Counted from the stretch's first letter, positions 29,332-47,900 are shown. The stretch is 59,896 bases of DNA from a virus (IMGVR_UViG_3300020391_000476:1-59896); one strand, 5' to 3'. Program-made: numbers and translations. Notes: a model not told the origin generated them from the sequence alone.

Positions 29332-30404
29332 CTCTTATTATAATAAGCTGTGTAGCTTAAATTTGCAGTTAATCTTCCATCTGTTGATGCCGACATTGAT
29401 TCGTTTGTTAATCTAGCTAATTTTACCGTATAATTTTGTATTGGCTCACCAAAGCAATCTTTTATTCTTATAGCTAAGTTATGTAGGGTAGGAGATTTTA
29501 AATACTTTCTCAGGCTTTTATATTGTCTTTCGTCAACTTCAACCGTAAAATTTGTTTTTGTTGTAATAGGCCAAATGACATCAACCTGAGCGGGCACTGT
29601 TGATCCTACTGTATAAATAGGATCTATTCCAATATTGATAGTATGATTAAATGATGTAATTCTATCAAATACATAATCGCCTTGATCTGTTTCGTAGTCA
29701 GTGGGATACGATTCACTTTCGTTTTCTTTTAGTAGCCCTCCTATTTCAACTTCTATAGATTTTTGATTTGTTAGTCTTATTTCAGGAAAAGGTAATTCTC
29801 CTGAAGCGTTATAAGTTGTGGGGTTGTCTGTATCTTCCTGTATGAATAGAAAATTGTCTTCGCTTTTTAGGTCTGTATCATCTTCGTTTTCTATGATATC
29901 TGGAGATCCACCTATATCTCCTAAAACTCTAATATTTGTGCTTGTTGTGGGCAATTGACCTATTCCACACGATACAGAATGACTTGTTATGTATCCGCTA
30001 TGAAATCCAAAATAACTATTGCCGTGATGAATACTGCCTGTAAATGGGTTATCACCAGTAAAATTTAACATAAAATCTTCGCTAACTAAAATTGAATTTA
30101 TGCTGAAAGTTCCTTCTAGTGGAGCATCTAGTAAAGCTAAACTTTCTGGCAGTCTTTCATTTCTTTCCCTGGTGCATATTTTTTCTTGTAAAAGTTTAAA
30201 TCCGTCAGCATCCAACAAGAAGCCTTGCTCGGTTACCTGGAAATATTCGGCTTGTTTATAAAATGATCTATTAACGTGACCCCAGCCAAGCACGTTTATA
30301 GGTTTTTCTGATATAGAATACGAACCCTCAACACTTTGTACTCCAGAAATTTGAGTACCGTTGAGATAAAATTGCTGTTCATAACCTAGTACCGCTTGTC
30401 TCAT
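29328..30404 (-). CDS. Tail-tube-fold protein (distal tail-like)
   Basis: ISGVQSVEGSYSI...I.VLG, GYITSHSVSCGIGQLPT, ARL..ESMSAS...ANLSY parallel the 520-aa tube protein. Confidence 0.65.
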   Translation of the reverse strand: MRQAVLGYEQQFYLNGTQISGVQSVEGSYSISEKPINVLGWGHVNRSFYKQAEYFQVTEQGFLLDADGFKLLQEKICTRERNERLPESLALLDAPLEGTFSINSILVSEDFMLNFTGDNPFTGSIHHGNSYFGFHSGYITSHSVSCGIGQLPTTSTNIRVLGDIGGSPDIIENEDDTDLKSEDNFLFIQEDTDNPTTYNASGELPFPEIRLTNQKSIEVEIGGLLKENESESYPTDYETDQGDYVFDRITSFNHTINIGIDPIYTVGSTVPAQVDVIWPITTKTNFTVEVDERQYKSLRKYLKSPTLHNLAIRIKDCFGEPIQNYTVKLARLTNESMSASTDGRLTANLSYTAYYNKR

Positions 30405-33400
30405 TTATCGAGTTCTCCGCCTAGTCTTTTCTCCTCTCTTATAACCTCTAATACTCTTGTTTTTATTTTCATAGCAAGCTCTTGTTCTTGTTGGTAGGAT
30501 CCTTCTGGCGTTTGAGCTTCCACACTTTCTTTGCCAGAGCTGTCAATGGTTACATTAACACTAATATTGTTGGTTATCTCGTTGTTTTGAGCTGCGCTTG
30601 TTTTTTCTGTTTCTGATGATTTTGCAGCTTCTATTAAAGGCTGTATTCTGTTTACTGGTTGATTTCCTTTTGGGCTTTCTGGGTTTGATTGGTTCGAGGG
30701 AAAGCTGGCCTGGCTGCCAGTACCAACAATTCCGCCATCATAATACCCAGTTGCGCTTTTCCTGAATCCATCTGGATTTTGCATTGCGAAACGCATGGTA
30801 TTTGGATTGTCTCGCATCAACTTATCGGTAGAACTTTTTCTTATAATAAAATCTCCTTCGTCAAGTCCAACAGGGCCAACTTTATCAATCCCAGATGGGC
30901 CTTGTATTGTAGGAAGAGAGCCTGTTCTGTTCATTGATTCAAGGTTCTGATAGCCGATTTTTTTAGCTGTACTTGAAGGTATAAACCCTTCTCCTCTTGT
31001 TAACATTGATGGAATTTTTCCTCCAGAATTATTTCGCAAAGTTCTTCTTCCGTAAGAGCTTTCCATGTTGTTTGAGTCTGGGCGGGTGGGATCAACAAAA
31101 GCCCTGTCATCAAATGTTCTTGTCCTTGTTACTTTTAAGAAATTGCCAGGTTGATAAGAGATTGATCCTTCAGGCCCAACCCTTCTTCTATCTTGAGGTG
31201 TTAAGGTGCGCGTGGTTGCATTCTTTTTACCTCGATTAGTTGTATATTCTATCGGCTGTCCAGTTTCAAAAGAGTTTTTTATTTGATTGTAACTAAGATC
31301 ATATCCAGTTTTATTTGCTGCTTTATAAGCATCTGAATATTCTCCAAACCCTAAATCTCCATTAAAGAAATCACTAGCTTTGTTTCCAATGTATTTTCCT
31401 GTTTTTACAAAAGGTGATGATATGAAATCAACCGTTTTTCTTAAAGGTTCTCTAAGAATGTCTGTTACTTCGGCGACGGCAAAGCTGCTTATGAAACCCA
31501 TAGCTTGCTGGAGGTATCCCATTCTTTTTTTGAATTTAGCGTTCTTTTTATCTACTTCGTATGCGGCTTTCTCTAAAAGATAATCTTTATACTCTTGCAT
31601 CTCCTGGCTTTTCGCTAAAGCCCTTCCGCTCATTCTTGGGTCTCCTGTTTTTAAACTAACATCAGAACCTAGGGCAAGAGGGTTCATTCTTTTCATATCA
31701 AAGACGGGTGGCCCCTTTTTCTTGCTTTGATCTTCCATTGCTTTATTTACAGCGTCAGCAGTTATGGTCATGACTGCGGCTTGAGTGGCTCCTTTAAAGA
31801 ATCTAGTAGCCCTTCCTCCTCCCGAGAAATTTTGAACCTCTTCTTTGGGCACAACATATTCTCCAGCAGTTAACATTGCTGGGACATTATCTATACCTCC
31901 TGGGCCTTCAACTAAGCCACCTTTTGCAAAGCGTTGGATTTTTCCGCCCCAGAAATTTTTTCCAGGAGGAGTGGGTTCTACTGCTGGAGGAGAGTCTGTT
32001 GTTGTGGTAGTTGCAGAAGGTTGTTGGAGACTAGCTGCTCGAGCTTCTGTTGCAATAGTTATTGCATTTTGCGCCGCAGACTCCCTCATTTTATTTATAT
32101 ATAATTGTTTTTCTAGTTCATTTATTTGGTATGCGATTGATTTTTCTATTTCTGCTAAACTAACTTTTTCTTCAAGTAATTTGCTTATTGTTGCGGTATT
32201 GGTTTTTCTTTGAGCTTGTTTTGACTTTAGTTCTGCGGTAAGATTAGTAATTTCTTCTTCGTGCTTTATTGATTGTTCTATATGATTTTCATTAGGCAGA
32301 CCCAATCTTTTCTTGTTAATGCTCAAACGATCATGTCTTTTTGCTTGTCTTGTGCTGTTTTTTATTTTTTCTTCGATCCCTTTTATTTCTTCATCTATTT
32401 TTCCATAATTAGTGGCTTCAACTTTTGTAGGAGGTAACGTTTGTGGCATGTATGGCACATACGGCATCATTGGCGCATAATTTTGTATAGTAAATCCAGG
32501 TTTATCCATTAGGGATTTTTCTTGTTCCGCTTCTTTTAAATTGTTTTTATTAACTTCTAATTTTTCTTGATTTAAGGTAGCATCCCGTTCTAATTTTGCT
32601 AATTGTCTTAATGTTCCATATACTGGAGGATCTGGGCTCAACTCTAATTCTAGACCACTTCCTTTTTCATTAAATGGCGTCGTTTTAACAGTATCATTAG
32701 TTACTGGGTCTACTTTTGCATCTACTTCCGATTTAATTTCTTCAAGCTTTTGTCTTATTTTTTCGAAAGCTCCACTTAAGCTTTCTACAAGACCTATTCC
32801 AGCATTTGTAAAATCTGTTATTTTAATATCTAGGCCTTCTAGTAAAGGCTTAAAGGTATTGTTTATTCTATCTTGCTCGATTTGTTCAGCTGTTTCTTTT
32901 GTGGGCTCTTTTGAAAATTCTGGAGGTGGAGGTGGTATTATTCCCTTCATTAATTGACCTCTTAGTTTTTCCAATGCCGAAGTGTTTGCAGATACTGCGT
33001 TGTTGTTTTCCATTAAAAATTTATTCGCTTCTTTTTCTGGGTCTACTCCAGTAAATGCATAAGTTAAATTACTAATGATTTTATCAACATTGTGTTGCAT
33101 CATTCTATCTAGAATTGCTTCAGCTAAACCAAGACCAAGATCCCGATATGCATCGCCTACTGATTTAGCGCCTGACCCAATATCTTTAAACATTTGAACC
33201 ATATTGGTTCTCAAATTTTCAATACCTGTATTTACTAAATCTGATTTTAGATTAGAGGCAGAAACTTGCATCTCAGCCATTTTTACTCTTAAGGCGTCTA
33301 TCGCTTCTGTTCCATTGTTTGTGGTTTTGTTAAATTCCTTTAATTTTTCAGTGAACGCAAGCATGTCTTCCGCTGTTGCATTAGGATTGATTGCCTGTGT

Positions 33401-36400
33401 TGCAGCAGCTCTAGTGTCATATCTTTGGTTAAAACGATTAATTTGCATGTCAGCTCCAACCATGCCCGATAGCGCTCTTTGATCTATTGAGGCTCTGTTT
33501 GCGGCAAGTCTCGCTTCGTCAATCTTGTTTGAAAAATCAAGAAGTTCTTGAGCTTTCTTTTGTCTTTCATTTATGCCTTCCAGTAGCTGCGCTTGCTCTG
33601 ATTTTAATGCGGCTAAGTATGCATCTTTTTCAAGCATTGAAGTTTCAAGCTTTAATTGTTCTTGTACTGTTCCGAGCAATTTGCCATTGTTTGCGGCAAT
33701 TTGGAATTTAGCTTCTTCTGTTAATCTTTGCGATTCTAATTCATTAAATTCTGAATTGACTAGAAAATTTGCAAGCTCAAGCCTTTTTTCAATATTACGT
33801 AATTGTTCTACTTTTCTTTCTGAACTGGTTGCTGCACGTTCTGCATCGGCGGTTTCATTTGCTAAAACAAGCTCTCCCATCTTCTTGCTTTGCTTTAATA
33901 ACTTAATTTCTTCTGCTTTTTCTTGTATTTGAGTTTCAAGAGAAGATTTTTCTTGTTTAAATTTTTGTTCCGCTATTCTTTTTCTTTCTCCAGATAAATC
34001 AATTAAAGATTGTTGTATATCGTTTTCAAGATTAGATAATACCAGGCCATCGCTTTCTAGGCCTACTTTATCTGCGAGTAATAGTATGCTGGTTGTTCGT
34101 AATTTTTTTTGTCTATCATCTAATTCGTTACCAGATACATTTGGGTCAAAAGATTTGATTTCCTCTTTTGATAATCCTCTTTTAGGTAGGTTTTCAATTA
34201 ACTCTGTTGTATTTTTACCAATTTTCGCTTCAACAGCTTGGGCGGTAAGATCGTTTATTATTTCTTTTCTTAAGTTGTATTCTTCTAATTTTGCATCATT
34301 GATTTGCATATCAAACATTGTTGACTCTTGTATTTCTTTAGCCAAAGTTTTACTATCTGTTATCCTGTCTTTAAGTATTTTGTATAAAGTTTTATTACCC
34401 TCTAGTGTTTTAGCTGTTAGATTTTCGCTTTCCATTTGTAGTGAAAGTTCTTTTCGGGCAATTGCTTCTGCTTTCTTAGCCGCATCAATCTCTTGTTGTT
34501 CTGTTAATTTTGATTCACGAATTTTTTTAATTTGTTCTTCTCGTAACTTAAGTATATTAGTACTGGCCAACACAAGAGCGGTAACATTTTCATCTCCTTC
34601 TTTCGCTAATCTTGAGTAAAGATCGGTTAGTATTTTTTGAAGTTCTAATGTCGATTCAGGATTATTGTTTACATTTTTTAGTTGTTCTTCAACTTGCTTT
34701 TTTGTTTGTTCAATTATTCTGGAGGCGGTTTCTTTATCTTCTTTTGATGCGGTTATTTTATTTTCTGGGTTTAAGCCTTTGTTAATTTTTTCAAAAGTTT
34801 TTGCAGATTCTATTACTCTTTTCCCTGCCGAATTTAAATCCTCCTTTAAATTTTCCAAAGCTATCTTCATGCTGCCAACATCCATTTCTGCAAGATTGTT
34901 TGTGACAAGTAATTTGTTTGCTTGCTCAAGAAGAGCTTGGTTTAGTTTTTCTCTAGCGTTTGTTGTTGAAAGTTTTTCTGTATTTTGAATATCTTCAAGA
35001 GCAAGGCTTTGTTTTTCTGCGAGTAATTTTGACTTGGCGATTAAGTTTTGTTCATCTAAGAATTTTGATCTTTGAGATGTTTGTTTGTTTATAATCTTAT
35101 TCAAAGAATTTTCGTGTTTAGCTGCGGCCATTTTCATCTTAGAAACATGTTTTTCTATAACCACTCTTCTTGCTAATTCTTTTATTCCTTCACTGTTACT
35201 TTGAATAAGATTTCTTAAAGATTTGCTAACGTCATTCTTTTTAAACCCATCAATAAAACTTTTCATTGCTTGCCTGAATGCTTCATTTTCATCCATAATG
35301 AAAAAACTCTCTGATTCTTCTAGGCCGTCATGAAGAGTTTTAAATACATTCCTAAAATCTTCTTGAGAGACGCCTTCTTTTAGCCCGAAATTCATTCTTT
35401 CAAGCATAGAATCTGGTTCTCCTCCTGCTTGGCTTAATTTTTTAAAAAGATCTTCGTTTTTACTAGCTTGACTTTCGTCCATCAAACTTCTGGTTAACAT
35501 AGCTAAACTATAACCCCTGCTTTTACCTGCATCGTTTAGCTTATCATTATTGTTTATTGAATCAGTAGTATTAGCAAAGGATTCATTTGTTGAAACAACA
35601 GCTTGAAAGACTTTCATTTGTTGAAGCATTGATTCAAGGTCAGCTTTATCTAAAGTAGATTTTCCCGCTTTTTTTGTTGCTTCAGAAAACATTCTCATTG
35701 CAAAACCGCCTTCGTTTGCTTCTTTTTGCAGTTCTGCCATAGATTTTGCTACAGCAATTTCTACATCATAAGATTTTACTCTGAGATCTAATAACTCTTG
35801 ATCTTCTTTTATTGTTCTACCGCTACCTTTTATTTCAAGCTCGACAATTTTTTGCTTGTTTTCTTCTTGTTTCTTTAAGTTTTCTATAGCTGCAGTTGTT
35901 GCTTCAATACTCTTGCTCATTAATTCGAGCCTGTGCGCAGCCTTCTCTGATGCTGAGCCCATAGCATACATATATAGCCCCATTTTATCATCGCTAATAA
36001 AATTTTTAAACACGCCATCAGCTAATTTAAAACCAGCTACAACAGCCGCAACTGGTTTGATAAATCTCTGCATAGCCTGAGCTCCTCTTGCAGCCATGTT
36101 TCTGATGCCCGCAAACATTGATCCTCTAGCTGCTCCTCCAGCAGCGGCTCCTCCAGCAACTCCTTCAATAACCCCACTGCTTCCTCCTTCTTCATCCTCT
36201 TTTTGTTTTTTACCCATCGATTCAAAGAAATTGGCCAATTCATCTCCAAGCATTTGTATTTGGACAAAAGAGGCTACTGTATCCGAAGCGACAGTCCCTA
36301 GTTTAGCGAAAGTTCTAGTTACCGTATTTGTACTTTCTGCAAATTCTTGTAAAAATCCATTTGTAGTACTAATTATGGATTGAAGTGCAAAAAGCTTGAC

Positions 36401-39400
36401 TAAGTTGTCCCCCTGGCTTTTTGTGTTTTGTTGTACTTCTATATCGGCTTCTTCTATGCTTGAAGTAAGTTCTTTGGTTGCTTTTTCGAGCTGCGCCATC
36501 TTTTTGTCTGCATTATCTTTTGTGGCTCCAATGGAATGCTGGCTTTGCGCATCAAGTATTTGCTTAGGGTTATTAATAAATTTATCAACCCCTTTTTTTC
36601 TGATGGTTTCAACTTCGTCTTTTATATTTAAAACATTTTTAGTGTTGCCTGTTTTCTTTGCTTTTTCTATTGAGTCATCAAATTTCTTTTTAAGATCTTT
36701 AGCTAAATCTCCTAGTTCAATATCATCTAGGGTTTTTTCTATATCCTTAAATGAACTTTCTGCTTTAGATACAATATCTTTCAAAATTTTATCAAATTCT
36801 TCTTTGTTTACTGGGGTTGCAAAATTTGGAACTTCAATTCCGTGTCTCTTGGGGTCTATTCTTTGTTTTTTGGCCCTTCTTATTCCTTGGGCTAATCCAC
36901 CTGGTTCATCACGAGTATTTGTAACAGCAAGGCCCATGGGGTTCATTGGGCTTTTTAATTGAGAACTTTTTTCTATTTTAATTCTTGAACTGGGTACGCC
37001 AGCTGATTTTTCTCTGTGAATTGCTTCTTGCAGTGGGTCCGCAAGGTTAGGTATATAGTAATCTTGCCCACCTCTTAATTTTTGGAGTTCGTCCCAAATC
37101 CTGTTTGCTTCTTCGTTTAATTTACTAATTATTGGATCTATTTCTATGCGAGCTCCACCTTTTTCAATTTGTTTTACATATGGAGCAATTTCGCCCATTT
37201 TGTCTCTCCATTTTTTTCGCAATAATTTGCTGTCAGACATCTTGTCTTTGTCGGATAGGTTTTTTCTATTAAGTTTGACGAAGTTAGGCACTAAACCCTT
37301 ACTAAGATCTCCTTGCATTAAAGGGTCTTTGGCTTCTTTAAATTTTCCTTTTGCTAACAATAAAGTCTCAAAATGCCCGAGCATGTATCCGTCTAATATA
37401 TTTTTAAGTTTTCTTTGGCTTCCTGCTATTTGGATTAAATCTTTTTCGCTCTTGCCTGAAGTTTTAAATGTTTCAATTAAGTTTCTGTCGTCTGGAGTTC
37501 CAGTTAGCGATGCCCTTGCATCATTAAATCCAAATGAACTAGATAGTCCTGATATTTTAGATATAAAATAATCAAACATATTAAACGCTATATCTTTATC
37601 TCCCTCGCTTAACCCTCTTCCAATAAACTCTCCTTTACCCTTTACCCTATCTTCTTGAGCTTTTATTGTTTTTGTTACTTTAGAGAAATTAGGCACCAAA
37701 CCCTTGCTTCGATTTTTACTTTCTTCAAGACCTGTACTTAAATCTGTAATTAAAATTCTGTTTCCAATTTCTTTAGTTCCTAGGGTATTTTGAAAATCTT
37801 TACGATTAATTTTGTTGACGTGGCTCTCAAGGTCTTTTATTCTGTTAAATTTATGTGACGATCCAAGGGCTTCGTTTATAAGTCTGCCAGACGTTAATGC
37901 TCCTTCTTGCATGCGATATCTTAATTGTGGAAAGGCGTATAAAAGATCCTCGAAGTTGCTAGAAGAACCTTGTTTAAATGATTTTTGTTGCTTAATGCTT
38001 CTAGAGGTATATTTACCCCCTCTTTTCATAAATTTTCCTTCTAGTTCACCCCTGATCATCTTGTATGCATCGCCTCTTTTATTAGACTGCAGGAAATCAA
38101 TATCTCTAACATTGGCGCCGTCTTTGACATATGTCATGAAAGAGCCAGTATCTTCGTCTTGTATAATTCTGCCTCTTCTTCCAAAGCCACCATCTAATCT
38201 AACAGGTGAATTTTTAAAGGCAAAGTTTGGGATTAAACCTTTTGACTTTTGACTTGCAACGTGTTGCCTCATTCCTTCTTTCCCAGCTCTCCTGGAGGCA
38301 TTCATTGCTTTTTCTGGATTTTTTGCAACTTCAGATGTTATCTCAAAAAATTCTTTATTATCTAAATGTTTTCCAGATATTTTCCTTTCAATTAAATAAT
38401 TATCTCGATTTAAATTTGGAGAAAATATTGACCTTATTTTTTTATCATCTTCGATTGTAAACCCATCCCTAAATGCATCTCCTGGACCTAAGTCAGGTAT
38501 AATATAGCCAGGCCCAAACATTCCATCATTTTTGTATGTTGCTAATGGGCGTGGGTTATCTTTAGTTCCAGCCATACTAGCTTTCCATAAACGATCATTT
38601 TTTTTGGTATTTCTTAGTCTTGAATATGCCCCAAGCCTGCCTTCCATTTCATCATATGCTTCATCAAATCCTTCTCCTGAATTATTAAGAAGATCATCTT
38701 CCCATTCTTCGTCGTATTGATTAGGTAGTGAATTGTTTGCCTGGAAAGCTCTACTCATAACCCTGAGTTTTCTTAAATTCCCAGAACTATAAATTCCAGA
38801 TGTCATTTCTTTTAGGTTACTATCGCTAATTGAATATTCACGAGCATATAAGTGTTCAATGTCTCTGCTTACCCTACCTTTAGCTACTACATTTCGCCAA
38901 TCATCTAATATTGCGTCTGTTCCTTTTTGACTATCAAAATACCAACCATCACCAGTCCTATTGCTTCTAAAATTTTTATTGTCACCAATATACGCTTGAT
39001 ACAGTTTTTTATAATTTGGCACAAATCCTTTATTTAAACCAAACCTATTTAAAATATCTTTTTCGTCTTGACCTATCCCGCTTGCTAACAAATCATTCCT
39101 AAAATTGTTTCCCCTTATAGATGACTCAAGTTCTTCTTTTGTCATTCCAGGAATAGTATATTCCCCCATTCTTGCTAAAGTGCTTAAATTTTTAACTATA
39201 CTATCCTCCTCGATTTGAGCAATAGATTGAGAAAGAGCGTCAGCTATTTCTCCACTAGTACTAAATCCGCCTATTTTAGTATTAGGATTTTCATATCTAC
39301 TTGGTTCCCTATGGTAAGCAGCGACGCTTTCAAGAGTATCCCTGAATTTTTTATTAGAGTATCTTCTTATGCTTTTCTCAAAAATATTTTGAAGTTTTAT

Positions 39401-42400
39401 ATTTCCAGACTTTACTTCAGTTGGGGCTCCATCTGAACTTATTGCGTCAACGACTGCTTGGTCATCTAATGAAGTAGATAGATATTCCTTTCCAACATCT
39501 GATTCTAAAAATTTCGATTCTGCAAAATTGCCTCTTTGTTTTGTCGTTCCTTCTGTCAAACCTTTTCTAGTATCATTTGTCATTCTTCCTTTTTTATTGA
39601 CAGGTAGGTCAATAAAATCAAAAGGTATTGTTGTTTCTATGTAGTCAACTCCTAGTGCTTCAAGATATGATCCTATATTCTTGAATGTGCTTGTTTTTAA
39701 GTTAGATGATGGTGTCTTGAATTTAATGTTACCTCCACCTAGACTTCCATCAGGCCTTCTTATTTGGTCTTGTATATGTTTAGGGAAATTCTGAAACGGA
39801 GTTCCCTTTAAGTTCATTTTCTCCTGATTTCCTGTTACATTATTTTTTAAAGTTACGCTTGCAAAGTTAGGAACAAAGCCAGAACTCTTTTTTTGGTAAT
39901 ATTTTTTTGCCTGTTCGGGAGAAACGACTTCAAGATCTTTGAAAAATACTTCCTCATCTTTGTATTTTTCCATGCCGTGATGTTTGATCCTTGCGATTTT
40001 CTTATCATTATCTACGCGAGTTACCCTAACGATTTTATTGTGAGGCTTACTGTAGTAGATTGCTCCGTTTTGAACTTTATCAACGAAGTTAGGAACAAGG
40101 CCAGAACTCTTTTTTTGGTAATATTTTTTTGCCTGTTCGGGAGAAACGACTTCAAGATCTTTGAAAAATACTTCCTCATCTTTGTATTTTTCCATGCCGT
40201 GATGTTTGATCCTTGCGATTTTCTTATCATTATCTACGCGAGTTACCCTAACGATTTTATTGTGAGGCTTACTGTAGTAGATTGCTCCGTTTTGAACTTT
40301 ATCAACGAAGTTAGGAACAAGGCCAGAAGAATAGCTTAAATCTTTATTGCCGTAGTATTTACCGCCTTTTATTGACTCCTTGTATTTTTTAAGTACAGAG
40401 TTTACATCTACATTATCTAAATTTTCGAAACCTGGAAGTTCAAGGTTTTTTCTTGTTTGTATTGTTTCTGATATAGCATTTTTGATTTGACTATCAGAAT
40501 ATTTATTGGGGTTTTTCTCTCCCATTGGAACTTTTAAAACCCTGCTTATTTGTGCAGGGGTTATGTTTGCTGGGGCTTTGAATTTTATATTTGCATTGGC
40601 TGGATCGTTTAGAGCAGATTGTATTTTTTCTGAACGAGTTCTGTCGTCTGCGAAATTAGGGATTAGGCCTAAATTTGCTTTTATATTGTGGGCTTGTTTG
40701 TTTCGCTGCTCTATATGTTTCATAGTAGGAGCGCCAAAACTTTCTGTATGAAAATATTCTAGACGCCCTAAGCTTCCATACCCTGCTCGTGGTGGCCATG
40801 ATATTGAGTCAGTGCCAATTAAGTGCCTTAAAAATTTTCCTGTTAAATGCTCGTCAAGGGTGTTTTTATATGCTGTTGGTCCGAATTTAGCTTCTCCAGG
40901 GACATCTATAAAATCAAGAGGAGATCCCGCAAGTCCTCGTTTACGACGTTTAAAATCTGAAATTGCATGCTCAAATCCATTCGCGTTCAAGCTATAAGGC
41001 GCATTTGCTAAAGTATTATAACTTAAAAAAACGGGTTTTGGTGGGTTTCCTTGCATTTTAGCAAATCCATAATGATCAACATTTGCGCTAAAATTTTGTT
41101 TTTTGAAGTCGGCTAGTTCTTTTTTAGTTAGTGGGTTTATATCAAACCTTTTATCTAAACCTAAAAAACTTTGAGGAGCTCCGCTTTTTATACCATTGAA
41201 AACACTATCAATTTCTTTGCCAGTAGCATTTACTTTTGACTTTCCCTTAGATTCTAATGATACATTTGCCCATGGACTAGAATTAGGTGGGCCAACGTAA
41301 GTTGAATCATCTTTTAAATATATTGGTGGCGCTACAAGCTTGTCTCTGTTGACGAATTGATTTCTGTAAGATGTAACTGAGTTTGCAAAAGATATTTTAG
41401 ATCTTCCTCCAGCTTCAACTGCGGCTTGAAAATAATGTCCAGATGCGGATTTTAAATTTTTTTGTTTTAAAAATTTATCCATTAAATCGTCATCAGTTAT
41501 TATCGCAATTCCTTTTTTTTCGGGGTCTTGATGGTGTTGTATAAATTTTGCAATTTTTTCTTTATTCGTTTGTAAGTATTGGTAGTATTCTGTGTGTGGT
41601 CTTGCATTAACAGTGTATCCAGCTTTGTTTAATTGGGCTCCAAAATCTCTATCAAAGTGTGAATGCGCTTTTTTATATGGATTATCAGGGGCTCCTGGAA
41701 GGCCAGTGGCATCTGTAAGTTCTTTGTTTGTCATTCTGTACCCTCCAGACAACCAGGCATTTTTTAATTCTTGGTAAACCTTATTAACATCAGAGCCTTT
41801 TCTGGGCGCAAAATTCGGAATAAACCCTCCACTAGCATAAGGATCAAAACCGTGTTTGTCTGAAAATTTTTCTTTATAGTTTCTTCCAGCCCTACTGCTT
41901 TGTGGCGGCATAATAGCAGGCTGTTTCATTCCCTCAAAATTCTTTACTTTTTCGGCGGTATTATAAATAACCTCACCCATTCCAGGAACCTTCATCTTGG
42001 TTACTTTTCCAGGACTATAACCTGCTTCTATAGCCCCTTTTCTTTCTGTATTTTTTTCTTGAGGTAAAAGGCCTCCAGCACTTCTAATCACTCCATCTCC
42101 ATCGATATCAACAAGCGTACCAGGGGTATTATCGTAACTAAGATCTGGGGTTATCCCTCTTTTTAAAAGAGCGGGGCCTAATTTGCTTGCGAGTTGTTGT
42201 TGTTTTGCAAGCGCATTTGTTTGAGCTTCTATTATCCCCAGTATGTATTGCTCTTGAGCAACCCTGTCTCCTTCAAGTCGGTTTAAAGCTTGAGTTACTT
42301 GAACATTTGAGCCTAATACTTTAACTATAGACTCTTCAATTTGCCTAACTTTTTCTTTTTGAGTTACTATTCCTAAAACATCTTTTAATGAGCCAGAAGC

Positions 42401-43765
42401 AAACTTAAAAACATTAAATAGAAGTTTTGTAAAAATAGCTACAAAAGCGATAGCTGCTGGGCCAGTCAAAACATTCCCAATACCTCTAACTAAACCTTTT
42501 GCAAACGCATTACCTTCCTCTTCTCCTCCTCCTAATGCATTTTTTAAACTTTCTATAGCATTGCCGAACAGTCCAACTGCTTCGCCTAGATCTTGTTTTA
42601 TTGATAATTCACCGATTATTCCTACTAGTTCTTTTAATCCAGAACCAGCTTGCGAAGCCATAGCGGATATGCTTTTATTTAAAAGTTCGTTTTTTCTAGC
42701 TGCTTCTCCAGCTGCGTTAGCTGATATTTCAGTAGCTTGTTGTTGAATGCCTTGAGTTTTTGCTAGGTCAGCAAGAGCGGCTCTAAAAATGTTAGCTTGA
42801 AATATTCCAGCAGCAAACTGAACAATGTTTGATTGTTGACTTTGAGATAGTTCTTCAAAACCTTTCGCTATGTTCTTCAAAACTTTATCAGCTGGAAGAA
42901 CTGCTCCAGTTAGAGTTCTAACTGCAACGCCCATATCTTCTAGCTGCCTGATGGATTCTGGCCTTTGGATTCTCGTAAAAATAGTTTTAAGTCCATTACC
43001 AATAACCGCACCACCACGAGCAGTTGTTTGCTGCAAAGAAGTTATAATTCCAACTAAGTTATCAAGGTCAACGCCAGCATCAATAGCAACAGCCCCAGCT
43101 CGCTCCAGACCGTTAATTAAGTCTTCAGAGCTAACAGCAAATTTTACGTCTACCGCAGCGAGTTTGTCTATAATATCTGTTGTTGTTAGACCTGCTTCTC
43201 CGAAAGCATTTACTGCTGCAGTTAATCCAGAAACAGCCTCAGCCGCATCTAAGCTTGTGATACGAGTCAATGTAAGGGCATCATTGGTTCTTTTTAAAAC
43301 TTCTTCTACGCTTAAACCTTGACGAGAAAATTCAAGAGCGGCTTCAGCAGCAATATTGAAAGATTGAGCTGTGTTTTGAGCTACATCAAATAAACCCTGT
43401 CCAAACTTTTCGATCTGTTCATTTGAGGAATTTAAAACTACATTAATGTCCTGGAGAGTTTTTTCAAATCTAATGGTCTCTGCAACTAAAAATTTAAAAG
43501 AATCTGTTATTGCATTAATTATTCCAACTGAAGCTCCAAACGCTATAACACGAGCATTAGAAGCTTCTAAAGATTTGGTGAATTCATTTGCGGATGCTGT
43601 AATTCTACCAAGCGGCTGGGTAAAGCTTTTTCCGTTTACATTAAAAGATATATCTTTTCCTGAAACATTTTGTACAGTTTTGTTTATCTCTCTAGCAGCG
43701 CGATCCATGCTTCGTTTTACTGAAGCCATGTTTACTTTTAGATCAACATTTGCTCTTACTGCCAT
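30401..43765 (-). CDS. Giant tape measure protein (4454 aa) with an internal motif-delimited cassette array
   Basis: N-terminal TP901-type core (EFSRQG, DKLAAVD...AVSSEDL..GL.RAG, IGNGLKTIFTRI), long coiled coils, and C-terminal FAKGG..GPGGIDNVPAMLTAGEYV motifs. Position between tube and tail tip genes. Confidence 0.93.
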   Translation of the reverse strand: MAVRANVDLKVNMASVKRSMDRAAREINKTVQNVSGKDISFNVNGKSFTQPLGRITASANEFTKSLEASNARVIAFGASVGIINAITDSFKFLVAETIRFEKTLQDINVVLNSSNEQIEKFGQGLFDVAQNTAQSFNIAAEAALEFSRQGLSVEEVLKRTNDALTLTRITSLDAAEAVSGLTAAVNAFGEAGLTTTDIIDKLAAVDVKFAVSSEDLINGLERAGAVAIDAGVDLDNLVGIITSLQQTTARGGAVIGNGLKTIFTRIQRPESIRQLEDMGVAVRTLTGAVLPADKVLKNIAKGFEELSQSQQSNIVQFAAGIFQANIFRAALADLAKTQGIQQQATEISANAAGEAARKNELLNKSISAMASQAGSGLKELVGIIGELSIKQDLGEAVGLFGNAIESLKNALGGGEEEGNAFAKGLVRGIGNVLTGPAAIAFVAIFTKLLFNVFKFASGSLKDVLGIVTQKEKVRQIEESIVKVLGSNVQVTQALNRLEGDRVAQEQYILGIIEAQTNALAKQQQLASKLGPALLKRGITPDLSYDNTPGTLVDIDGDGVIRSAGGLLPQEKNTERKGAIEAGYSPGKVTKMKVPGMGEVIYNTAEKVKNFEGMKQPAIMPPQSSRAGRNYKEKFSDKHGFDPYASGGFIPNFAPRKGSDVNKVYQELKNAWLSGGYRMTNKELTDATGLPGAPDNPYKKAHSHFDRDFGAQLNKAGYTVNARPHTEYYQYLQTNKEKIAKFIQHHQDPEKKGIAIITDDDLMDKFLKQKNLKSASGHYFQAAVEAGGRSKISFANSVTSYRNQFVNRDKLVAPPIYLKDDSTYVGPPNSSPWANVSLESKGKSKVNATGKEIDSVFNGIKSGAPQSFLGLDKRFDINPLTKKELADFKKQNFSANVDHYGFAKMQGNPPKPVFLSYNTLANAPYSLNANGFEHAISDFKRRKRGLAGSPLDFIDVPGEAKFGPTAYKNTLDEHLTGKFLRHLIGTDSISWPPRAGYGSLGRLEYFHTESFGAPTMKHIEQRNKQAHNIKANLGLIPNFADDRTRSEKIQSALNDPANANIKFKAPANITPAQISRVLKVPMGEKNPNKYSDSQIKNAISETIQTRKNLELPGFENLDNVDVNSVLKKYKESIKGGKYYGNKDLSYSSGLVPNFVDKVQNGAIYYSKPHNKIVRVTRVDNDKKIARIKHHGMEKYKDEEVFFKDLEVVSPEQAKKYYQKKSSGLVPNFVDKVQNGAIYYSKPHNKIVRVTRVDNDKKIARIKHHGMEKYKDEEVFFKDLEVVSPEQAKKYYQKKSSGFVPNFASVTLKNNVTGNQEKMNLKGTPFQNFPKHIQDQIRRPDGSLGGGNIKFKTPSSNLKTSTFKNIGSYLEALGVDYIETTIPFDFIDLPVNKKGRMTNDTRKGLTEGTTKQRGNFAESKFLESDVGKEYLSTSLDDQAVVDAISSDGAPTEVKSGNIKLQNIFEKSIRRYSNKKFRDTLESVAAYHREPSRYENPNTKIGGFSTSGEIADALSQSIAQIEEDSIVKNLSTLARMGEYTIPGMTKEELESSIRGNNFRNDLLASGIGQDEKDILNRFGLNKGFVPNYKKLYQAYIGDNKNFRSNRTGDGWYFDSQKGTDAILDDWRNVVAKGRVSRDIEHLYAREYSISDSNLKEMTSGIYSSGNLRKLRVMSRAFQANNSLPNQYDEEWEDDLLNNSGEGFDEAYDEMEGRLGAYSRLRNTKKNDRLWKASMAGTKDNPRPLATYKNDGMFGPGYIIPDLGPGDAFRDGFTIEDDKKIRSIFSPNLNRDNYLIERKISGKHLDNKEFFEITSEVAKNPEKAMNASRRAGKEGMRQHVASQKSKGLIPNFAFKNSPVRLDGGFGRRGRIIQDEDTGSFMTYVKDGANVRDIDFLQSNKRGDAYKMIRGELEGKFMKRGGKYTSRSIKQQKSFKQGSSSNFEDLLYAFPQLRYRMQEGALTSGRLINEALGSSHKFNRIKDLESHVNKINRKDFQNTLGTKEIGNRILITDLSTGLEESKNRSKGLVPNFSKVTKTIKAQEDRVKGKGEFIGRGLSEGDKDIAFNMFDYFISKISGLSSSFGFNDARASLTGTPDDRNLIETFKTSGKSEKDLIQIAGSQRKLKNILDGYMLGHFETLLLAKGKFKEAKDPLMQGDLSKGLVPNFVKLNRKNLSDKDKMSDSKLLRKKWRDKMGEIAPYVKQIEKGGARIEIDPIISKLNEEANRIWDELQKLRGGQDYYIPNLADPLQEAIHREKSAGVPSSRIKIEKSSQLKSPMNPMGLAVTNTRDEPGGLAQGIRRAKKQRIDPKRHGIEVPNFATPVNKEEFDKILKDIVSKAESSFKDIEKTLDDIELGDLAKDLKKKFDDSIEKAKKTGNTKNVLNIKDEVETIRKKGVDKFINNPKQILDAQSQHSIGATKDNADKKMAQLEKATKELTSSIEEADIEVQQNTKSQGDNLVKLFALQSIISTTNGFLQEFAESTNTVTRTFAKLGTVASDTVASFVQIQMLGDELANFFESMGKKQKEDEEGGSSGVIEGVAGGAAAGGAARGSMFAGIRNMAARGAQAMQRFIKPVAAVVAGFKLADGVFKNFISDDKMGLYMYAMGSASEKAAHRLELMSKSIEATTAAIENLKKQEENKQKIVELEIKGSGRTIKEDQELLDLRVKSYDVEIAVAKSMAELQKEANEGGFAMRMFSEATKKAGKSTLDKADLESMLQQMKVFQAVVSTNESFANTTDSINNNDKLNDAGKSRGYSLAMLTRSLMDESQASKNEDLFKKLSQAGGEPDSMLERMNFGLKEGVSQEDFRNVFKTLHDGLEESESFFIMDENEAFRQAMKSFIDGFKKNDVSKSLRNLIQSNSEGIKELARRVVIEKHVSKMKMAAAKHENSLNKIINKQTSQRSKFLDEQNLIAKSKLLAEKQSLALEDIQNTEKLSTTNAREKLNQALLEQANKLLVTNNLAEMDVGSMKIALENLKEDLNSAGKRVIESAKTFEKINKGLNPENKITASKEDKETASRIIEQTKKQVEEQLKNVNNNPESTLELQKILTDLYSRLAKEGDENVTALVLASTNILKLREEQIKKIRESKLTEQQEIDAAKKAEAIARKELSLQMESENLTAKTLEGNKTLYKILKDRITDSKTLAKEIQESTMFDMQINDAKLEEYNLRKEIINDLTAQAVEAKIGKNTTELIENLPKRGLSKEEIKSFDPNVSGNELDDRQKKLRTTSILLLADKVGLESDGLVLSNLENDIQQSLIDLSGERKRIAEQKFKQEKSSLETQIQEKAEEIKLLKQSKKMGELVLANETADAERAATSSERKVEQLRNIEKRLELANFLVNSEFNELESQRLTEEAKFQIAANNGKLLGTVQEQLKLETSMLEKDAYLAALKSEQAQLLEGINERQKKAQELLDFSNKIDEARLAANRASIDQRALSGMVGADMQINRFNQRYDTRAAATQAINPNATAEDMLAFTEKLKEFNKTTNNGTEAIDALRVKMAEMQVSASNLKSDLVNTGIENLRTNMVQMFKDIGSGAKSVGDAYRDLGLGLAEAILDRMMQHNVDKIISNLTYAFTGVDPEKEANKFLMENNNAVSANTSALEKLRGQLMKGIIPPPPPEFSKEPTKETAEQIEQDRINNTFKPLLEGLDIKITDFTNAGIGLVESLSGAFEKIRQKLEEIKSEVDAKVDPVTNDTVKTTPFNEKGSGLELELSPDPPVYGTLRQLAKLERDATLNQEKLEVNKNNLKEAEQEKSLMDKPGFTIQNYAPMMPYVPYMPQTLPPTKVEATNYGKIDEEIKGIEEKIKNSTRQAKRHDRLSINKKRLGLPNENHIEQSIKHEEEITNLTAELKSKQAQRKTNTATISKLLEEKVSLAEIEKSIAYQINELEKQLYINKMRESAAQNAITIATEARAASLQQPSATTTTTDSPPAVEPTPPGKNFWGGKIQRFAKGGLVEGPGGIDNVPAMLTAGEYVVPKEEVQNFSGGGRATRFFKGATQAAVMTITADAVNKAMEDQSKKKGPPVFDMKRMNPLALGSDVSLKTGDPRMSGRALAKSQEMQEYKDYLLEKAAYEVDKKNAKFKKRMGYLQQAMGFISSFAVAEVTDILREPLRKTVDFISSPFVKTGKYIGNKASDFFNGDLGFGEYSDAYKAANKTGYDLSYNQIKNSFETGQPIEYTTNRGKKNATTRTLTPQDRRRVGPEGSISYQPGNFLKVTRTRTFDDRAFVDPTRPDSNNMESSYGRRTLRNNSGGKIPSMLTRGEGFIPSSTAKKIGYQNLESMNRTGSLPTIQGPSGIDKVGPVGLDEGDFIIRKSSTDKLMRDNPNTMRFAMQNPDGFRKSATGYYDGGIVGTGSQASFPSNQSNPESPKGNQPVNRIQPLIEAAKSSETEKTSAAQNNEITNNISVNVTIDSSGKESVEAQTPEGSYQQEQELAMKIKTRVLEVIREEKRLGGELDK
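36821..41827 (-). repeat. Eleven dispersed in-frame copies of a G-[FL]-[IV]-P-N-F-type peptide motif inside the TMP
   Basis: GFIPNF 41810-41827; GLIPNF 40652-40669; GLVPNF 40307-40324 and 40085-40102; GFVPNF 39863-39880; GFVPNY 39011-39028; GLIPNF 38222-38239; GLVPNF 37685-37702 and 37280-37297; YYIPNL 37043-37060; GIEVPNF 36821-36841. Confidence 0.9.
39878..40328. repeat. Exact 222-bp tandem duplication (74 aa) inside the TMP
   Basis: 39878-40099 equals 40100-40321 base for base, with the match continuing to 40328. Confidence 0.95.
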
Positions 43766-43821: not shown

Positions 43822-44949
43822 TTAAGTAGGGTCATACTCAGATATAATAGGCTTTATTGTTATGTTTTTATTTATTGTTAAATAAACATAATATTCACCA
43901 TATTCTTCGTCATACTCTTCATCTAAATCTTGTATTTGATTTTTTATATCATTTCCGTTTTCGTCTACGTAAGTAAATTCATCTATTTTGTATTTTGGTA
44001 CACCGTCATAATCTCCGTCGTGTTCTATAGAGTTATATCTAAATACATATTCACCGTCTTCGTCTGTGTATTCACTAATAAAAAACGATGCCTCAAGTTC
44101 TTCTCCATATGAAAAAGAATCAAAATCTCCTTCTACAATAACCACTGTTTCCTCTTCCACGGAATCATCTTCTAGTGCAAAGGGTATTCCATCTGATTCA
44201 CTTAAATTAAAATCTAATTCAACGGCTTGAAAATCTGCTATAGCAATCATGTTGTCTCTGTCTATTTTTATAGTAGTTTCAATAGAATATTTATCTGCTA
44301 TTTTTATGCCTATCCATTCTGTAAACTCGTGTGAGTCCGTATTAATTGCTTTAATTGGAGCGTCAGATAAGTAATCTTTTAACCCAGATAAAGTCTCATC
44401 AACCAAGCCTATTGGATCTCCGTTTTCATCAACCACGCTGCTTAGTGATAAATTAAACTTTGCAGGTTCGAAATTTGCATTTATAGTTATGTTTTTTTCA
44501 AGTAGTATGGATTGAACAGCAAGGCTTGGGTCTACAAAAGTATAATCATCAGAATCCCAACCTGTAAATACGTAACCAAAATCGACATTTAGCTCTATAT
44601 CTAAAAGATCTCCTAAAAAACCTCTTAAAGTTCCTATTACAGATCCATGGTCTGAATTAACAATAATTCCCAAAGTATCATGTATCTCGCACACATTGGT
44701 TGCGCATAATGTCAGCCTGCCTTCAAAATCTCTAGAATAAGCTGCGTAGGCCCAAACGCCAGGTCCCTCCACTTCATCTATGTATTGAGTTACAGTTAGA
44801 TCTCCTGTTTCAAATACTAGCTCCTCGTTATACAAGAAATCGCAGCCTCTAATGTTTTTTCCCTTAAACAACATAATTGCTTGTACATCACTTGTATGCA
44901 AAGGAATATCCCAATCCGCCAAAAGTTGATATTTAAAGTTATTACTCAT
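43822..44949 (-). CDS. Acidic protein with an FN3-like N-terminus and InlB B-repeat-like domains
   Basis: GYVFTGW...NITINANF, HEFTEW...ADF, NITIKPI. The N-terminus resembles that of the upstream 2243-aa protein. Confidence 0.7.
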   Translation of the reverse strand: MSNNFKYQLLADWDIPLHTSDVQAIMLFKGKNIRGCDFLYNEELVFETGDLTVTQYIDEVEGPGVWAYAAYSRDFEGRLTLCATNVCEIHDTLGIIVNSDHGSVIGTLRGFLGDLLDIELNVDFGYVFTGWDSDDYTFVDPSLAVQSILLEKNITINANFEPAKFNLSLSSVVDENGDPIGLVDETLSGLKDYLSDAPIKAINTDSHEFTEWIGIKIADKYSIETTIKIDRDNMIAIADFQAVELDFNLSESDGIPFALEDDSVEEETVVIVEGDFDSFSYGEELEASFFISEYTDEDGEYVFRYNSIEHDGDYDGVPKYKIDEFTYVDENGNDIKNQIQDLDEEYDEEYGEYYVYLTINKNITIKPIISEYDPT

Positions 44950-47900
44950 TATGCTTGAGGAGGTATTTCTAATACAAAAAATGATTCGTCTGCTGATATA
45001 GCTATTTTTGTCGCAGTCCCAGAATCTCTTGTGTCAAAAACAACAGCTTTACCAAAGAAATCAGGTTCTGACATATATATTTTATTCCAATAATCAAAGT
45101 TTTCTGAAGTGGAATTCCATTTATATATAAAAACTGTTTTTTCGCTTGGTGCGGATATAGCCAAATAGTCTCCTTCAAAAGCTATGTCGTAAGCAAAACC
45201 CAATCTTCCATTAGCAGTTGTTTGAAAGTCTGATGGTATTGTTATTGATTGAACATTTTCGTATTCAAACCAATCATATGTTGATGATGAATAATTTATG
45301 GTTATAGGTCTTCTGAGTAATACCTTAACCTCAGCAGGTTTGTCTGTTCTTCCAATACCCAGGGTTGGATTCGAATCTCTAGAGTTACTAATAACTGCTA
45401 TTGATCCGTCTGGGGATAACTTTACTTTTTTTCCATAATCACTGTTTGTGTTGTAGTCTCTTCCAAAATCTATTACTGGTTCCTGATCCACATCTAATGA
45501 TGGTGAATTCCATGCGCCTCGATAATTCATATAATCTTGAAATGTAGCTGGATTTTTTACAGAAGATGTATCGCTTGGATCTCTTAAACCTATACCCATT
45601 TTCATTATTGTTCCGTTTTCTTCATAAACACCTATGATCTTAGTTATAGATGTTTGTCGAAGCCAACCAGTATAAGTTAAATCTGAATTAGAAGGCCTCC
45701 ATACAGATGTAATAGCTACGAATATAGGATTTGTTGCAGAAGACGTATCTAATGTTGGGCTATCTCTGGATACATCAATAGATCTTCCAAATTGAGAGAA
45801 TGATCCATCGGTAGACTGACCGCCTATATCGGTTGAGCCAAGATTAAATGTTATATAATTTAAATCTCCTTTTCCGTGATCTTGGTCGTCCCAATCTTCT
45901 TCTGTATATTGGGCTATAGCTGTATTATTTGCGTAAGCATTAGGGACTACATGTACTATGTTTGAATCTTCTGGGGCAACATTAGGTGCGAATAAGGGGA
46001 TTGTTTGCCCGTACTGAGGGTCCCGATTAGCACCTGTTACATTAGAAGTTGAAGGCAGAAAATTATCCACGCTACTTGGACAAGAATAAGCTACAAAATT
46101 TTTAGCAATACATATTGAATGCCCGAAGAAAGTTTTTTTACTCTGCCTACTAAAAGTATAATTGATATCTGAAGCATTAGGGGTATGGATTACATTTGTT
46201 CCTGACATTATTCCTATATTTCCGTCGCTGTCTATATTTGAAACTGTTCCTAAAGTAAGGCTGCCATATTCGGTAGACCCAAAAGGTGTATATGTTTCTG
46301 TAGAGAGTCCCGATGTACTCGAGGCTGTTGCTATAGTGGTTTTTAAATAATCCCCTGGGTTTCCACACATTATTTTTGTTCCATCTGGAGAAACAACTAG
46401 CCTGCCTTTGTGCCCTTTTATGAATTCTAGTTGCAATCGTCCCGAGAAGGAGCTAAATATATTTTTAGCGTAGTTAAAATAACTTATTCCTTCAGCACCC
46501 CTATTATCTCTATACCCAGATAGACTTTCTTCGCTGGTAAGTAAAGTTTCTATTTGATTTCCCGAATTATCTTTATTAATTATTCTGATCGCAGCTATAG
46601 GACTCGTCCCATCTTCTATACTACTGTCGGAGTAACCCATTGAACTTGTGTGCCCTGTTACATCTTTTACTCTTGAAACAGTAGGGACATATAAGGAAGA
46701 TAAAACTACTGCGCCTGCATCTTTTGTCATTGCGAGCATATTTCTATCGATTTCTTGACCTCTGTTTCCATCAGAGGAAATAATTGGGAATAATATATTA
46801 CCTCCACCATCTCTAGGCAGCGGTATAGCCTCCAGATATAACTCTATGGTAGTATCTCCTAATATATTAATGCTTTGGTTTTGTTCGTTTGAGTTAAAAT
46901 TTGTAGGAGTGGTGCCGCTGGTCACGCTCCATCTTGTAAATTTGTAACCTTGATTGGGGGTAGCTGCTATATTTGCTACTTCATTATACAAGTAAGTTCC
47001 AGCTCCTGCAGCTGAACCCCAACTTGAATCATTTATAATAATAGTAAGCGTATAAGGTGTTCCTATGAATACTGGCCTTATTTTAGTATCCCCAGTTAAC
47101 CTTATAGTGTCCGAAGCTGAACCATTAAAGTCTTGCCAATTATTCGCAGAAACTTCATATTCCCATTTTGAAAATTGAAAATTAGAGTTTGCATTTGCTT
47201 GTAATGTGATATCTTGAAAAGCATTGTAGCTTCCATTGTTTGTGCTTCCAGAAGTGTTTCCATTGGCTCCCTGAATAATAGTAAAAGAATATAACTTGAA
47301 GCTAAAGTTGGCCTCCAGAGCTACATCACTTTCTATTTGTATATTAGAAGATGATGCAGAAGGAATATTTCCTTTTAAATTTCCTGAAATTAAACTCCAA
47401 TTGTCAAAATTAAGATGATTTGGTGGGGTAACGCTTAATGATATTAAATCGTCCAAAAAATATGGCCCAGTATTACTTGGACTATAAGTAAAATCAGGCG
47501 CACTTTGAGGGTATGTTGTAGGATAGCCTGCTGTTATTGATAACTCATATCCCTGATACACTATGTAATCGATAGTAACATCATCTGTTAGATTAATTGT
47601 TGTTCCTTCAGGCCAAACCGTTGAAGGTTCTGAGGATAAAGCACTTGCGGTACCTTGCGTTATTTCCCAGCTTTGAAATTCTTGATTATTGGGTACACTA
47701 ATTGATGGTATAGTTATTGCACTATTTCCTTCTATTACATTTTGAGTATACTCATTTACAGGCGATCCGTTGTCCACTATTTTCCTGATAGTAAAGACAT
47801 AACTCTCTAGAGCTCTTAAGTAAAAACTTAATATAGTATCTTCATTTATAGTTATTTCTTGATCGTCTGTATTGTTCTTGTCAAAAGATTGGCTTCCTGA

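Follow-up and report, generated by a model that had tools for sequence, protein, structure and literature searches.

Tape measure proteins (TMPs) are textbook length rulers of phage tails that occasionally carry a cell-wall enzyme. They occupy the tail lumen, from which they exit before the DNA does. The TMP of phage T5, Pb2, carries an embedded function. Short peptides at the borders of protein units are known from polymorphic toxins, in which junction peptides (VENN in CdiA and PxxxxDPxGL in Rhs) are present and the Rhs peptide is also a self-cleavage site, and from viral polyproteins, in which unrelated functional units are parted by a repeated protease site. The Tmp of mycobacteriophage TM4 is described as a TMP with an embedded cell-wall-active motif (PMC1796659), polyvalent proteins as polypeptides of 2-15 domains with variable architectures that are proposed to accompany the DNA into the host, some of them being processed by their own peptidase domain (PMC5512222), and the Sle1-type effectors of actinobacterial contractile injection systems as a TMP-related, reconfigurable carrier for diverse domains inside a tail-like tube (PMC13277306). 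The subject of the present analysis is a TMP of 4454 residues encoded on an IMG/VR virus record (IMGVR_UViG_3300020391_000476), a stretch of 59,896 bp that was analysed as a whole (the window) and is estimated to be approximately 43% complete as a virus. Inside this protein, ten modules are arranged in series and fenced by copies of one seven-residue peptide. Among related phages the modules are gained, lost, duplicated, replaced and re-ordered, with the junctions at the delimiter peptide.

The array and its delimiter motif

The TMP gene is one open frame (30401..43765; 4454 amino acids plus stop) on the minus strand, to which all features of the protein given below belong, and residue i corresponds to window position 43765-3(i-1). 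The PhageMin_Tail domain (PF10145) was detected at amino acids (aa) 128-316 (42818-43384) with an E value of 2.7e-24 and 86.6 bits against a cut-off of 33.2. Every one of the ten best PHROG matches of the protein is a tape measure family, and the genes downstream are of the lambda tail-tip type, comprising minor tail proteins and an I-J fusion (phrog_290, 14, 18, 30, 32 and 31; lambda gpM/L/K/I-J-like). On these sequence grounds, the open reading frame (ORF) is a TP901-type TMP of an uncultured lambda-tip-type siphovirus from seawater; the sequencing runs in which the window sequence occurs are marine and seawater metagenomes.

The cassette array spans aa 647-2315 (36821..41827), the same coordinates that had been given in a first-pass annotation of the DNA, and contains ten cassettes and 11 delimiter motifs. 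The loose pattern [IV]PN[FYL] occurs 11 times in the TMP, always in the array, and has no copy elsewhere in the 4454 residues. The copies are found at aa 649, 1035, 1150, 1224, 1298, 1582, 1845, 2024, 2159, 2238 and 2312, and the resulting spacings (386, 115, 74, 74, 284, 263, 179, 135, 79 and 74 aa) are identical to those of the first-pass annotation, which had also described 11 motifs bounding ten segments. Nine of the 11 copies fit the strict pattern G[FL][IV]PN[FY], and the last two are degenerate (DYYIPNL and GIEVPNF). Motif 1 (aa 647-653, in the context GGFIPNFA) is located at 41807..41827, motifs 2-6 at 40649-40669, 40304-40324, 40082-40102, 39860-39880 and 39008-39028, motifs 7-9 at 38219-38239, 37682-37702 and 37277-37297, and the degenerate motifs 10 (YYIPNLA) and 11 (IEVPNFA) at 37040-37060 and 36818-36838, respectively. 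When the whole 59.9-kb window was translated in six frames, the strict motif was matched nine times, and all matches were within the array. The mean number of matches in 2000 shuffles of the TMP was 0.0065 for the strict and 0.28 for the loose pattern. The number of motifs is far above chance, and the motif is restricted to the array.

Separately from the delimiter, another peptide with the pattern V-P-x-M-(L-T)-x-G-E-x-[VI]-[VIYP] is repeated in the TMP and is present at aa 597, just before the array, and at aa 3968, 4258 and 4304 in the C-terminal region (about 41940-41975 and 30800-31865). The G-E-Phi-[VI]-[VI]-P core of this peptide resembles a longer form of the array delimiter.

The cassettes differ in length and family. 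Cassette 1 (380 aa, family F19) carries a conserved PLDF..GEAK pattern and is located at 40670..41809, followed by cassette 2 (109 aa, family F3) at 40325..40651. Cassettes 3 and 4 (family F16; 39864..40307) form a perfect 222-nucleotide (nt) tandem duplication, the unit of which is one cassette plus one motif. Cassettes 5 (278 aa, family F2), 6 (257 aa, F11), 7 (173 aa, F4), 8 (129 aa, F6), 9 (73 aa, F8) and 10 (68 aa, F1) are located at 39029..39862, 38240..39010, 37703..38221, 37298..37684, 37061..37279 and 36839..37042, respectively. Cassette 6 is 77% identical to its counterpart in an IMG/VR relative (L003), with which it shares a DNA block that ends at motifs, and cassette 10 is the most conserved module.

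The segments had been described as basic, unrelated apart from one duplicated pair, and not coiled coil, and each of these descriptions agrees with the present results. Net charge is positive in 10 of 10 segments (+1 to +16), although two are marginal (+1 and +3). In an all-versus-all BLASTP comparison, only cassettes 3 and 4 were related (100% identical, E 8e-48), whereas every other pair gave an E value of at least 0.11. Per 100 aa, the array contains 6-12 aromatic and 8-20 Gly+Pro residues, whereas aa 2600-3500 contain 1-7 and 2-8, respectively, and cassette 5 is modelled as an alpha/beta globule. The duplication of cassettes 3 and 4 is also visible in sequencing depth. In two runs that may be the source sample, the coverage of a 229-nt contig of this repeat was approximately double that of its neighbours (77.6 versus 36 and 40.7 versus 21.5). 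The close relatives P0003, P0004 and P0005 contain a single copy of the F16 cassette.

Exchange of modules among related phages

When the array region was used as a query, 151 proteins of 2.4-7.8 thousand residues were retrieved, and 120 of these (P0002-P0121) were kept. P0001 denotes the window TMP and P0002 is the window's own protein, so the homologs are the 119 proteins P0003-P0121. PF10145 is present on nearly all of the listed homologs. P0001 and the 119 homologs contain 4-26 loose and 4-23 strict motifs per protein, and 947 of the 997 loose instances fall between aa 500 and 2750. The family consensus derived from these 997 instances in 120 proteins is [AS]-[GKS]-G-[FL]-[VI]-P-N-F-A. G at position -2 is present in 887 instances, N in 969, F in 835 and P in all 997, the last of which is demanded by the search pattern itself.

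Cutting the 120 proteins at the motif gave 830 cassettes belonging to 145 families, 71 of which are singletons. Cassette length ranges from 26 to >400 aa without periodicity, and the number of modules per protein is 10 in the window TMP and 2-19 in its relatives. The common families are F1 (approximately 70 aa, nearly always last), F2 (approximately 240 aa, usually first) and F3, which are present in 95, 85 and 66 of the 120 proteins, respectively; the rest are patchy. Because F1 is the most conserved module and nearly always closes the array, cassette 10 is probably backbone rather than cargo. The number and order of cassettes differ even between close relatives. For example, the order is F19-3-16-16-2-11-4-6-8-1 in the window TMP, 44-3-16-2-11-37-4-24-6-8-1 in P0003 and 2-19-3-16-16-9-6-8-1 in P0006.

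A scan of IMG/VR with cassette 10 yielded 193 relatives. Of the 81 distinct IMG/VR loci kept, 77 contain at least two motifs in the long ORF, which in some of them encodes a smaller TMP (1.7-2.4 thousand residues). For cassettes 1, 6, 7 and 8, these loci did not supply enough homologs to build deep alignments. Among the INPHARED phages, no match to the array or to the gene was found, and the N-terminus of the TMP showed only 24-27% identity there, to TMPs of Bacillus and Lactococcus.

The proteins P0004 and P0005 have N-termini that are 96-98% identical to that of the window TMP, yet they carry different cassettes, whereas cassette 7 is 84% identical to a cassette of P0023, the N-terminal domain of which is only 49% identical. 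These two observations indicate that modules move between diverged backbones and turn over quickly.

The borders of the exchanged segments coincide with the motif. Of 378 ends of BLASTP high-scoring segment pairs inside aa 700-2280 of the window TMP, 271 lie within 10 aa of a motif, whereas 11.4% would be expected to do so under a uniform distribution. The DNA blocks shared with the closest IMG/VR relative are 82-93% identical and end at aa 1220, 1226.7, 1302, 1579, 1850, 2021, 2161.7 and 2238; all eight of these internal ends are within 5 aa of a motif. Seawater contigs from two studies lack cassette 9 together with the degenerate motif 10, and the loss is in frame. The resulting junction (..GLVPNF-SNPLQ..) joins a canonical motif to cassette 10. 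In one seawater contig of 2299 nt, the 516 nt of cassette 7 are replaced by 747 other nt, while the flanks differ at only 12 of 1552 positions (approximately 99% identical). Two contig joints (36643|36776 and 37416|41449) were disregarded because their sides were under 30 letters, and parts of the window that were uncovered in read sets X3 or X7 were not counted as absence. The proposed variation in the number and order of cassettes between homologs, with breaks at the motif, is thus borne out in the proteins, in the DNA of the closest relative and in natural seawater variants, and it is almost certain that the array serves as a platform for modular exchange.

Several relatives depart from the regular arrangement. 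In some of them a delimiter has decayed (e.g., to GLIPSFA), as in aa 640-1164 of P0005 and in the last cassettes of P0004 and P0009, and two cassettes are then read as one; the motif can therefore vanish without loss of the flanking modules. Three proteins (P0034, P0038 and P0046; 7487, 4887 and 6068 aa, respectively) have extra delimiters near the far C-terminus and a terminal F7 cassette. This subgroup contains up to 24 inter-motif intervals, four of which measure 529-1393 aa. In another subgroup of TMPs, with arrays starting at aa ~545, F7 is the first cassette.

Possible roles of the modules and the delimiter

Taken as a whole, the array is on balance best explained as an insertion platform in the TMP whose swappable modules are carried as cargo, and functional cargo is the somewhat more probable nature of the modules when set against filler. 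The clear enzyme among the cassettes of relatives, judged by domain match, is a staphylococcal nuclease (SNase). In P0049 the SNase domain (aa 2191-2288) is located inside a motif-bounded cassette (2164-2358), the family of which is present in 16 of the 120 proteins; the precomputed PF00565 annotation is flagged on 9 of the 120 listed proteins. Cassette 5 of the window was aligned with 12 homologs, and residues D139, E149, K151, K163 and S164 were invariant and E115 nearly so. The predicted structure of cassette 5 is a mixed alpha/beta globule (mean predicted local distance difference test score, pLDDT, 90.4; predicted template modelling score, pTM, 0.85), which agrees, for at least one cassette, with the earlier suggestion of globular segments. 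Its structured elements extend from residue 5 to residue 273 of 278, so the delimiter would form nearly the whole linker between modules.

The core of PD-(D/E)xK nucleases is expected to show the order helix-strand-strand-strand-helix. In the model of cassette 5, the residues of the E..D..ExK pattern fall on a helix (107-120), short strands near 127, 139 and 148, and a helix (157-165). The PLDF..GEAK pattern of cassette 1 is common to three other families. Cassettes 5 and 1 may be PD-(D/E)xK-like nucleases, although for cassette 5 a nuclease assignment is tentative and somewhat doubtful.

Cysteine is absent from the TMP (0 of 4454 residues), compared with 172 of 14,324 residues (1.2%) in the other ORFs of the window. 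It is also rare in the homologs (36 of 455,820 residues in P0003-P0121) and in the IMG/VR ORFs (19 of 211,960 residues in L004-L083). Such avoidance fits a protein that must travel unfolded. The length of the array is not compensated in the rest of the TMP, the two lengths being correlated at Spearman +0.28 (n = 107).

Several results weigh against the modules being delivered effectors. The first-pass annotation had pointed to the nuclease, GNAT and ART effectors that phage polyvalent proteins bundle, and such effectors found no support in the window, in which 0 of the 9 distinct cassettes gave a credible match in Pfam, PHROGs or NCBIfam (sub-threshold noise only). Of 64 cassette-family representatives from IMG/VR relatives, 62 had no Pfam match. 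A phmmer search of the array and a search with the cassette 5 profile returned nothing credible from PDB sequences (E 0.04). For the structural model of cassette 5, no relative was found by Foldseek in the PDB (best E 0.39) or among the viral predicted structures of BFVD (best E 0.40), and VIA-align against 48,161 chains gave a best Z of 4.9 with no PD-(D/E)xK-fold nuclease among the top matches; this lack of a structural match does not show a new fold. In the ESM Atlas, the best score for cassette 5 was 0.88, and PDDEXK_14 appeared at rank 22 with a score of 0.85, being assigned to 27% of members; these scores hardly differ from chance. Pfam searches of the 13 members of the cassette 5 alignment gave weak matches in single members only. 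The evidence for a nuclease in cassette 5 therefore consists of the residue pattern and a sub-threshold Atlas lead. The AlphaFold2 model of cassette 1 was unusable (pLDDT 49), and no conclusion was drawn from it, including on the conformation of the motif; the best Atlas score for the C-terminal half of this cassette was 0.80, at or near chance level.

The distribution of the cassettes points in the same direction. The cassette 5 profile had 41 matches in 1.84 billion representatives; 28 of these were in proteins of at least 1000 aa, mostly just after aa 640, and 13 were in shorter ones. Only 10 proteins under 917 aa matched the array. Judged from these sequence matches, the cassettes appear private to the TMP family, unlike a pool of widely used effectors. 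Cysteine avoidance extends over the full length of the TMP and may be shared by TMPs in general. Any modular protein would be expected to show breakpoints where its modules meet, and such breakpoints alone say nothing about the role of the delimiter. No protease that might read the motif was recognised in the 20 neighbouring ORFs scanned, the genomes of relatives lying outside that search.

An alternative is that the modules only add length or bulk, as a plug, spacer or tail-length tuner, and that nothing acts on the host. The motif would then be a contact site that holds the three TMP chains in register, either with one another or with the tube wall or an assembly chaperone. Most cassettes lack an enzyme signature and are known only from TMPs, the families F1, F2 and F3 are as widely kept as structural parts would be (95, 85 and 66 of 120), and a short peptide that recurs along the chain would naturally dock a partner that is itself repeated. 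Array length is correlated with total TMP length (Spearman 0.78), so cassettes could alter tail length. However, a module that serves only as a spacer would require neither the confident globular fold nor the invariant D/E/K residues of cassette 5, and it would not call for transfer between distant backbones at 84% identity. Nor is filler expected to include the nuclease domain that is present in a cassette of relatives, and cassettes of such varied length (26 to >400 aa, no periodicity) are ill-suited to register with tube rings. Filler is accordingly considered a rather unlikely account of the modules.

A second alternative is that the modules act on the outer membrane, peptidoglycan, periplasm or inner-membrane channel, vary with the type of host surface, and are host-range determinants of an envelope-penetration toolkit rather than intracellular effectors. 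Known TMPs do carry cell-wall-active motifs, as described for TM4 (PMC1796659). In the present family, one homolog (P0067) contains a VanY peptidase domain, though outside the array (aa 3280-3362), the window TMP has a hydrophobic segment and a glycine-zipper-like stretch, and avoidance of cysteine suits transit of an oxidising periplasm. The SNase, which is the only recognisable cassette enzyme in relatives, has no envelope substrate unless it is delivered further, and searches of the window cassettes against Pfam, PHROGs and NCBIfam gave no signature of a lysozyme, peptidase or lipase. An envelope role for the modules is thus judged improbable.

Whichever role the modules have, a protein-level role of the motif is required. 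The 11 copies use varied synonymous codons, and their 21-nt cores are 61% identical on average, with exact runs of 5 nt (median) and 13 nt (maximum), whereas the flanks are approximately 30% identical. Since codons vary synonymously while the amino acids stay conserved, comparison of the copies indicates that the motif is under selection as a peptide and that DNA homology there is at most microhomology. An exception is the tandem duplication of cassettes 3 and 4, where the three flanking motif copies match at 95-100% over 21 nt, a pattern expected from unequal crossing-over. The earlier idea of the motif as a DNA-level homology junction is therefore poorly supported as a general mechanism. A third alternative, in which the motif is a recombination scar kept only as DNA homology for cassette exchange, agrees with the breakpoints at the motif and with the near-identical copies around the duplication but is highly improbable, as the DNA of the other copies has diverged under conserved amino acids and, among distant phages, 887, 997 and 969 of the 997 instances retain G, P and N, respectively (P being set by the search pattern).

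On the reading of the array as an insertion platform for cargo, a lineage-wide platform has evolved between the conserved N-terminal domain and the helical ruler, as a row of independently folding modules parted by G-[FL]-[VI]-P-N-F-A. As part of the TMP, the modules would sit in the tail lumen, probably outside their native fold. They would exit before the DNA does and arrive in the host envelope or cytoplasm prior to phage gene expression. The lumen of a siphovirus tail is typically about 4 nm. Because globules of 30-42 kDa are about as wide as the lumen and three chains share it, the modules would probably be stored in a non-native state and would fold only once outside the tail; the avoidance of cysteine is consistent with this. 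Fast module turnover would reflect a host-specific arms-race function in entry, takeover or counter-defence.

One invariant peptide borders otherwise unrelated modules, which suggests one common reader. The delimiter would thus be a short signal for a single partner, most likely a protease that separates the modules; alternatively, it would be a packing or chaperone contact that keeps the modules threadable. Asn-dependent self-cleavage sites are known from some virus capsid proteins, and the Asn-then-Phe of the delimiter recalls them. Cleavage at the motif is possible but rather doubtful. In the most far-reaching version, the tail lumen would act as a device for protein delivery in a widespread group of marine siphoviruses, and the TMP would be a self-delivering polyprotein that is cut at G-Phi-[VI]-P-N-F-A by a phage or host protease or by Asn self-cleavage and releases up to ten or more ready-made proteins into the cell before phage gene expression, including nuclease-like enzymes of unseen folds, and the phages would re-arm by module swaps; this version is speculative and rather unlikely.

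Genomic setting and comparison with known systems

The array is inserted between regions of different character. The conserved N-terminal region (aa 1-646; 41828..43765) is 62-98% identical across the closer homologs and contains a hydrophobic segment at aa 424-460 (42386-42496). Downstream of the array, the presumed ruler (aa 2316-~3900; 32066..36820) contains A/E/L/K/Q at 45-60 per 100 aa and is helix-type as judged from composition alone; its end near aa 3900 is approximate. Within this part, approximately 210 residues past the array (about 35996-36187), a glycine-zipper-like stretch (GxxxGxxxG; aa 2527) is accompanied by a moderately hydrophobic segment (aa 2568-2590), and the two could be a membrane-active element. 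The Gly/Pro-rich C-terminal region (about aa 3901-4454; 30404..32065) is 40-96% identical in homologs.

Two ORFs of 375 aa (43822-44949) and 2243 aa (44949-51680) on the minus strand directly upstream of the TMP gene encode divergent InlB B-repeat (Flg_new_2, Ig-like) domains, and neither has a PHROG match. The only sign of a tube protein upstream of the TMP is a weak Phage_tube_2 match (E 0.0026, below the cut-off), and no tail assembly chaperone pair of the G/GT type was recognised in the usual position upstream of the TMP. A protein of 1717 aa (14739-19892, minus strand) matches phrog_32 (tail assembly protein I) over its first ~160 residues and phrog_31 (central tail fibre J) in its later part, and from these matches it looks like an I-J fusion. 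Two glycosyltransferase-like genes (phrog_2170) are located at 7986-9071 and 10494-12416 on the plus strand, opposite to the tail module.

No description of the motif or the array was found in the open-access and bioRxiv literature searched, supplements being outside the scope. The array belongs to a large and environmentally common family, with more than 100 giant homologs in other metagenomes besides the 193 IMG/VR relatives, in which the ruler serves as the platform for a variable row of modules that share one universal delimiter and exchange has been caught in seawater populations. The approximately 145 module families are almost wholly uncharacterised, and for at least one of them the fold is confidently predicted yet lacks any detectable relative. 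Should the modules be delivered, they would represent a new route for phage proteins that act before expression, in takeover or counter-defence, distinct from capsid-packaged proteins, and would offer a design found in nature by which phage tails could be loaded with foreign proteins.

The closest systems in kind are TMPs with embedded functional motifs and polyvalent proteins. TM4 Tmp (PMC1796659) resembles the window TMP in being a siphovirus TMP on a PhageMin_Tail/TP901-type backbone with extra functional sequence taken into the host envelope. The same holds for T5 Pb2. The additions in these TMPs amount to one or two small motifs or to a single enzyme at the C-terminus, whereas the window TMP carries ten shuffled modules with a universal delimiter. 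The Sle1-type effectors differ in belonging to a contractile intracellular nanomachine and in having a single variable C-terminal domain, with no array, delimiter motif or phage infection described (PMC13277306).

Viral polyproteins are similar in that one short conserved site lies between units, whereas the chain in the window is a structural tail component and cleavage there is only proposed. The polymorphic toxins CdiA and Rhs also have a short conserved peptide that borders modules exchanged by recombination. Each of them has one variable C-terminal toxin with a cognate immunity gene, whereas many modules, all internal to one ORF, are present here in series inside a virion protein. No immunity genes are apparent, although ORFs on the opposite strand were listed only mechanically.

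Polyvalent proteins share with the present family the presence of many domains in one phage polypeptide and a variable architecture, the window family having 145 cassette families. They are built of recognisable conflict domains (MPTase, ParB/DdrB-like, nucleases, methylases, ArdC-N and DarA) and are associated with the head or with conjugation; the main text of the report on them contains neither 'tape measure' nor 'linker' (0 times each) and describes no common delimiter (PMC5512222). Of their hallmark domains, none was found above the Pfam cut-off in the 9 window cassettes (0/9), and only SNase is present, in some relatives. Unlike polyvalent proteins, the window array has a TMP as its carrier, its modules are mostly uncharacterised and private to the family, and a single peptide fences each of them.

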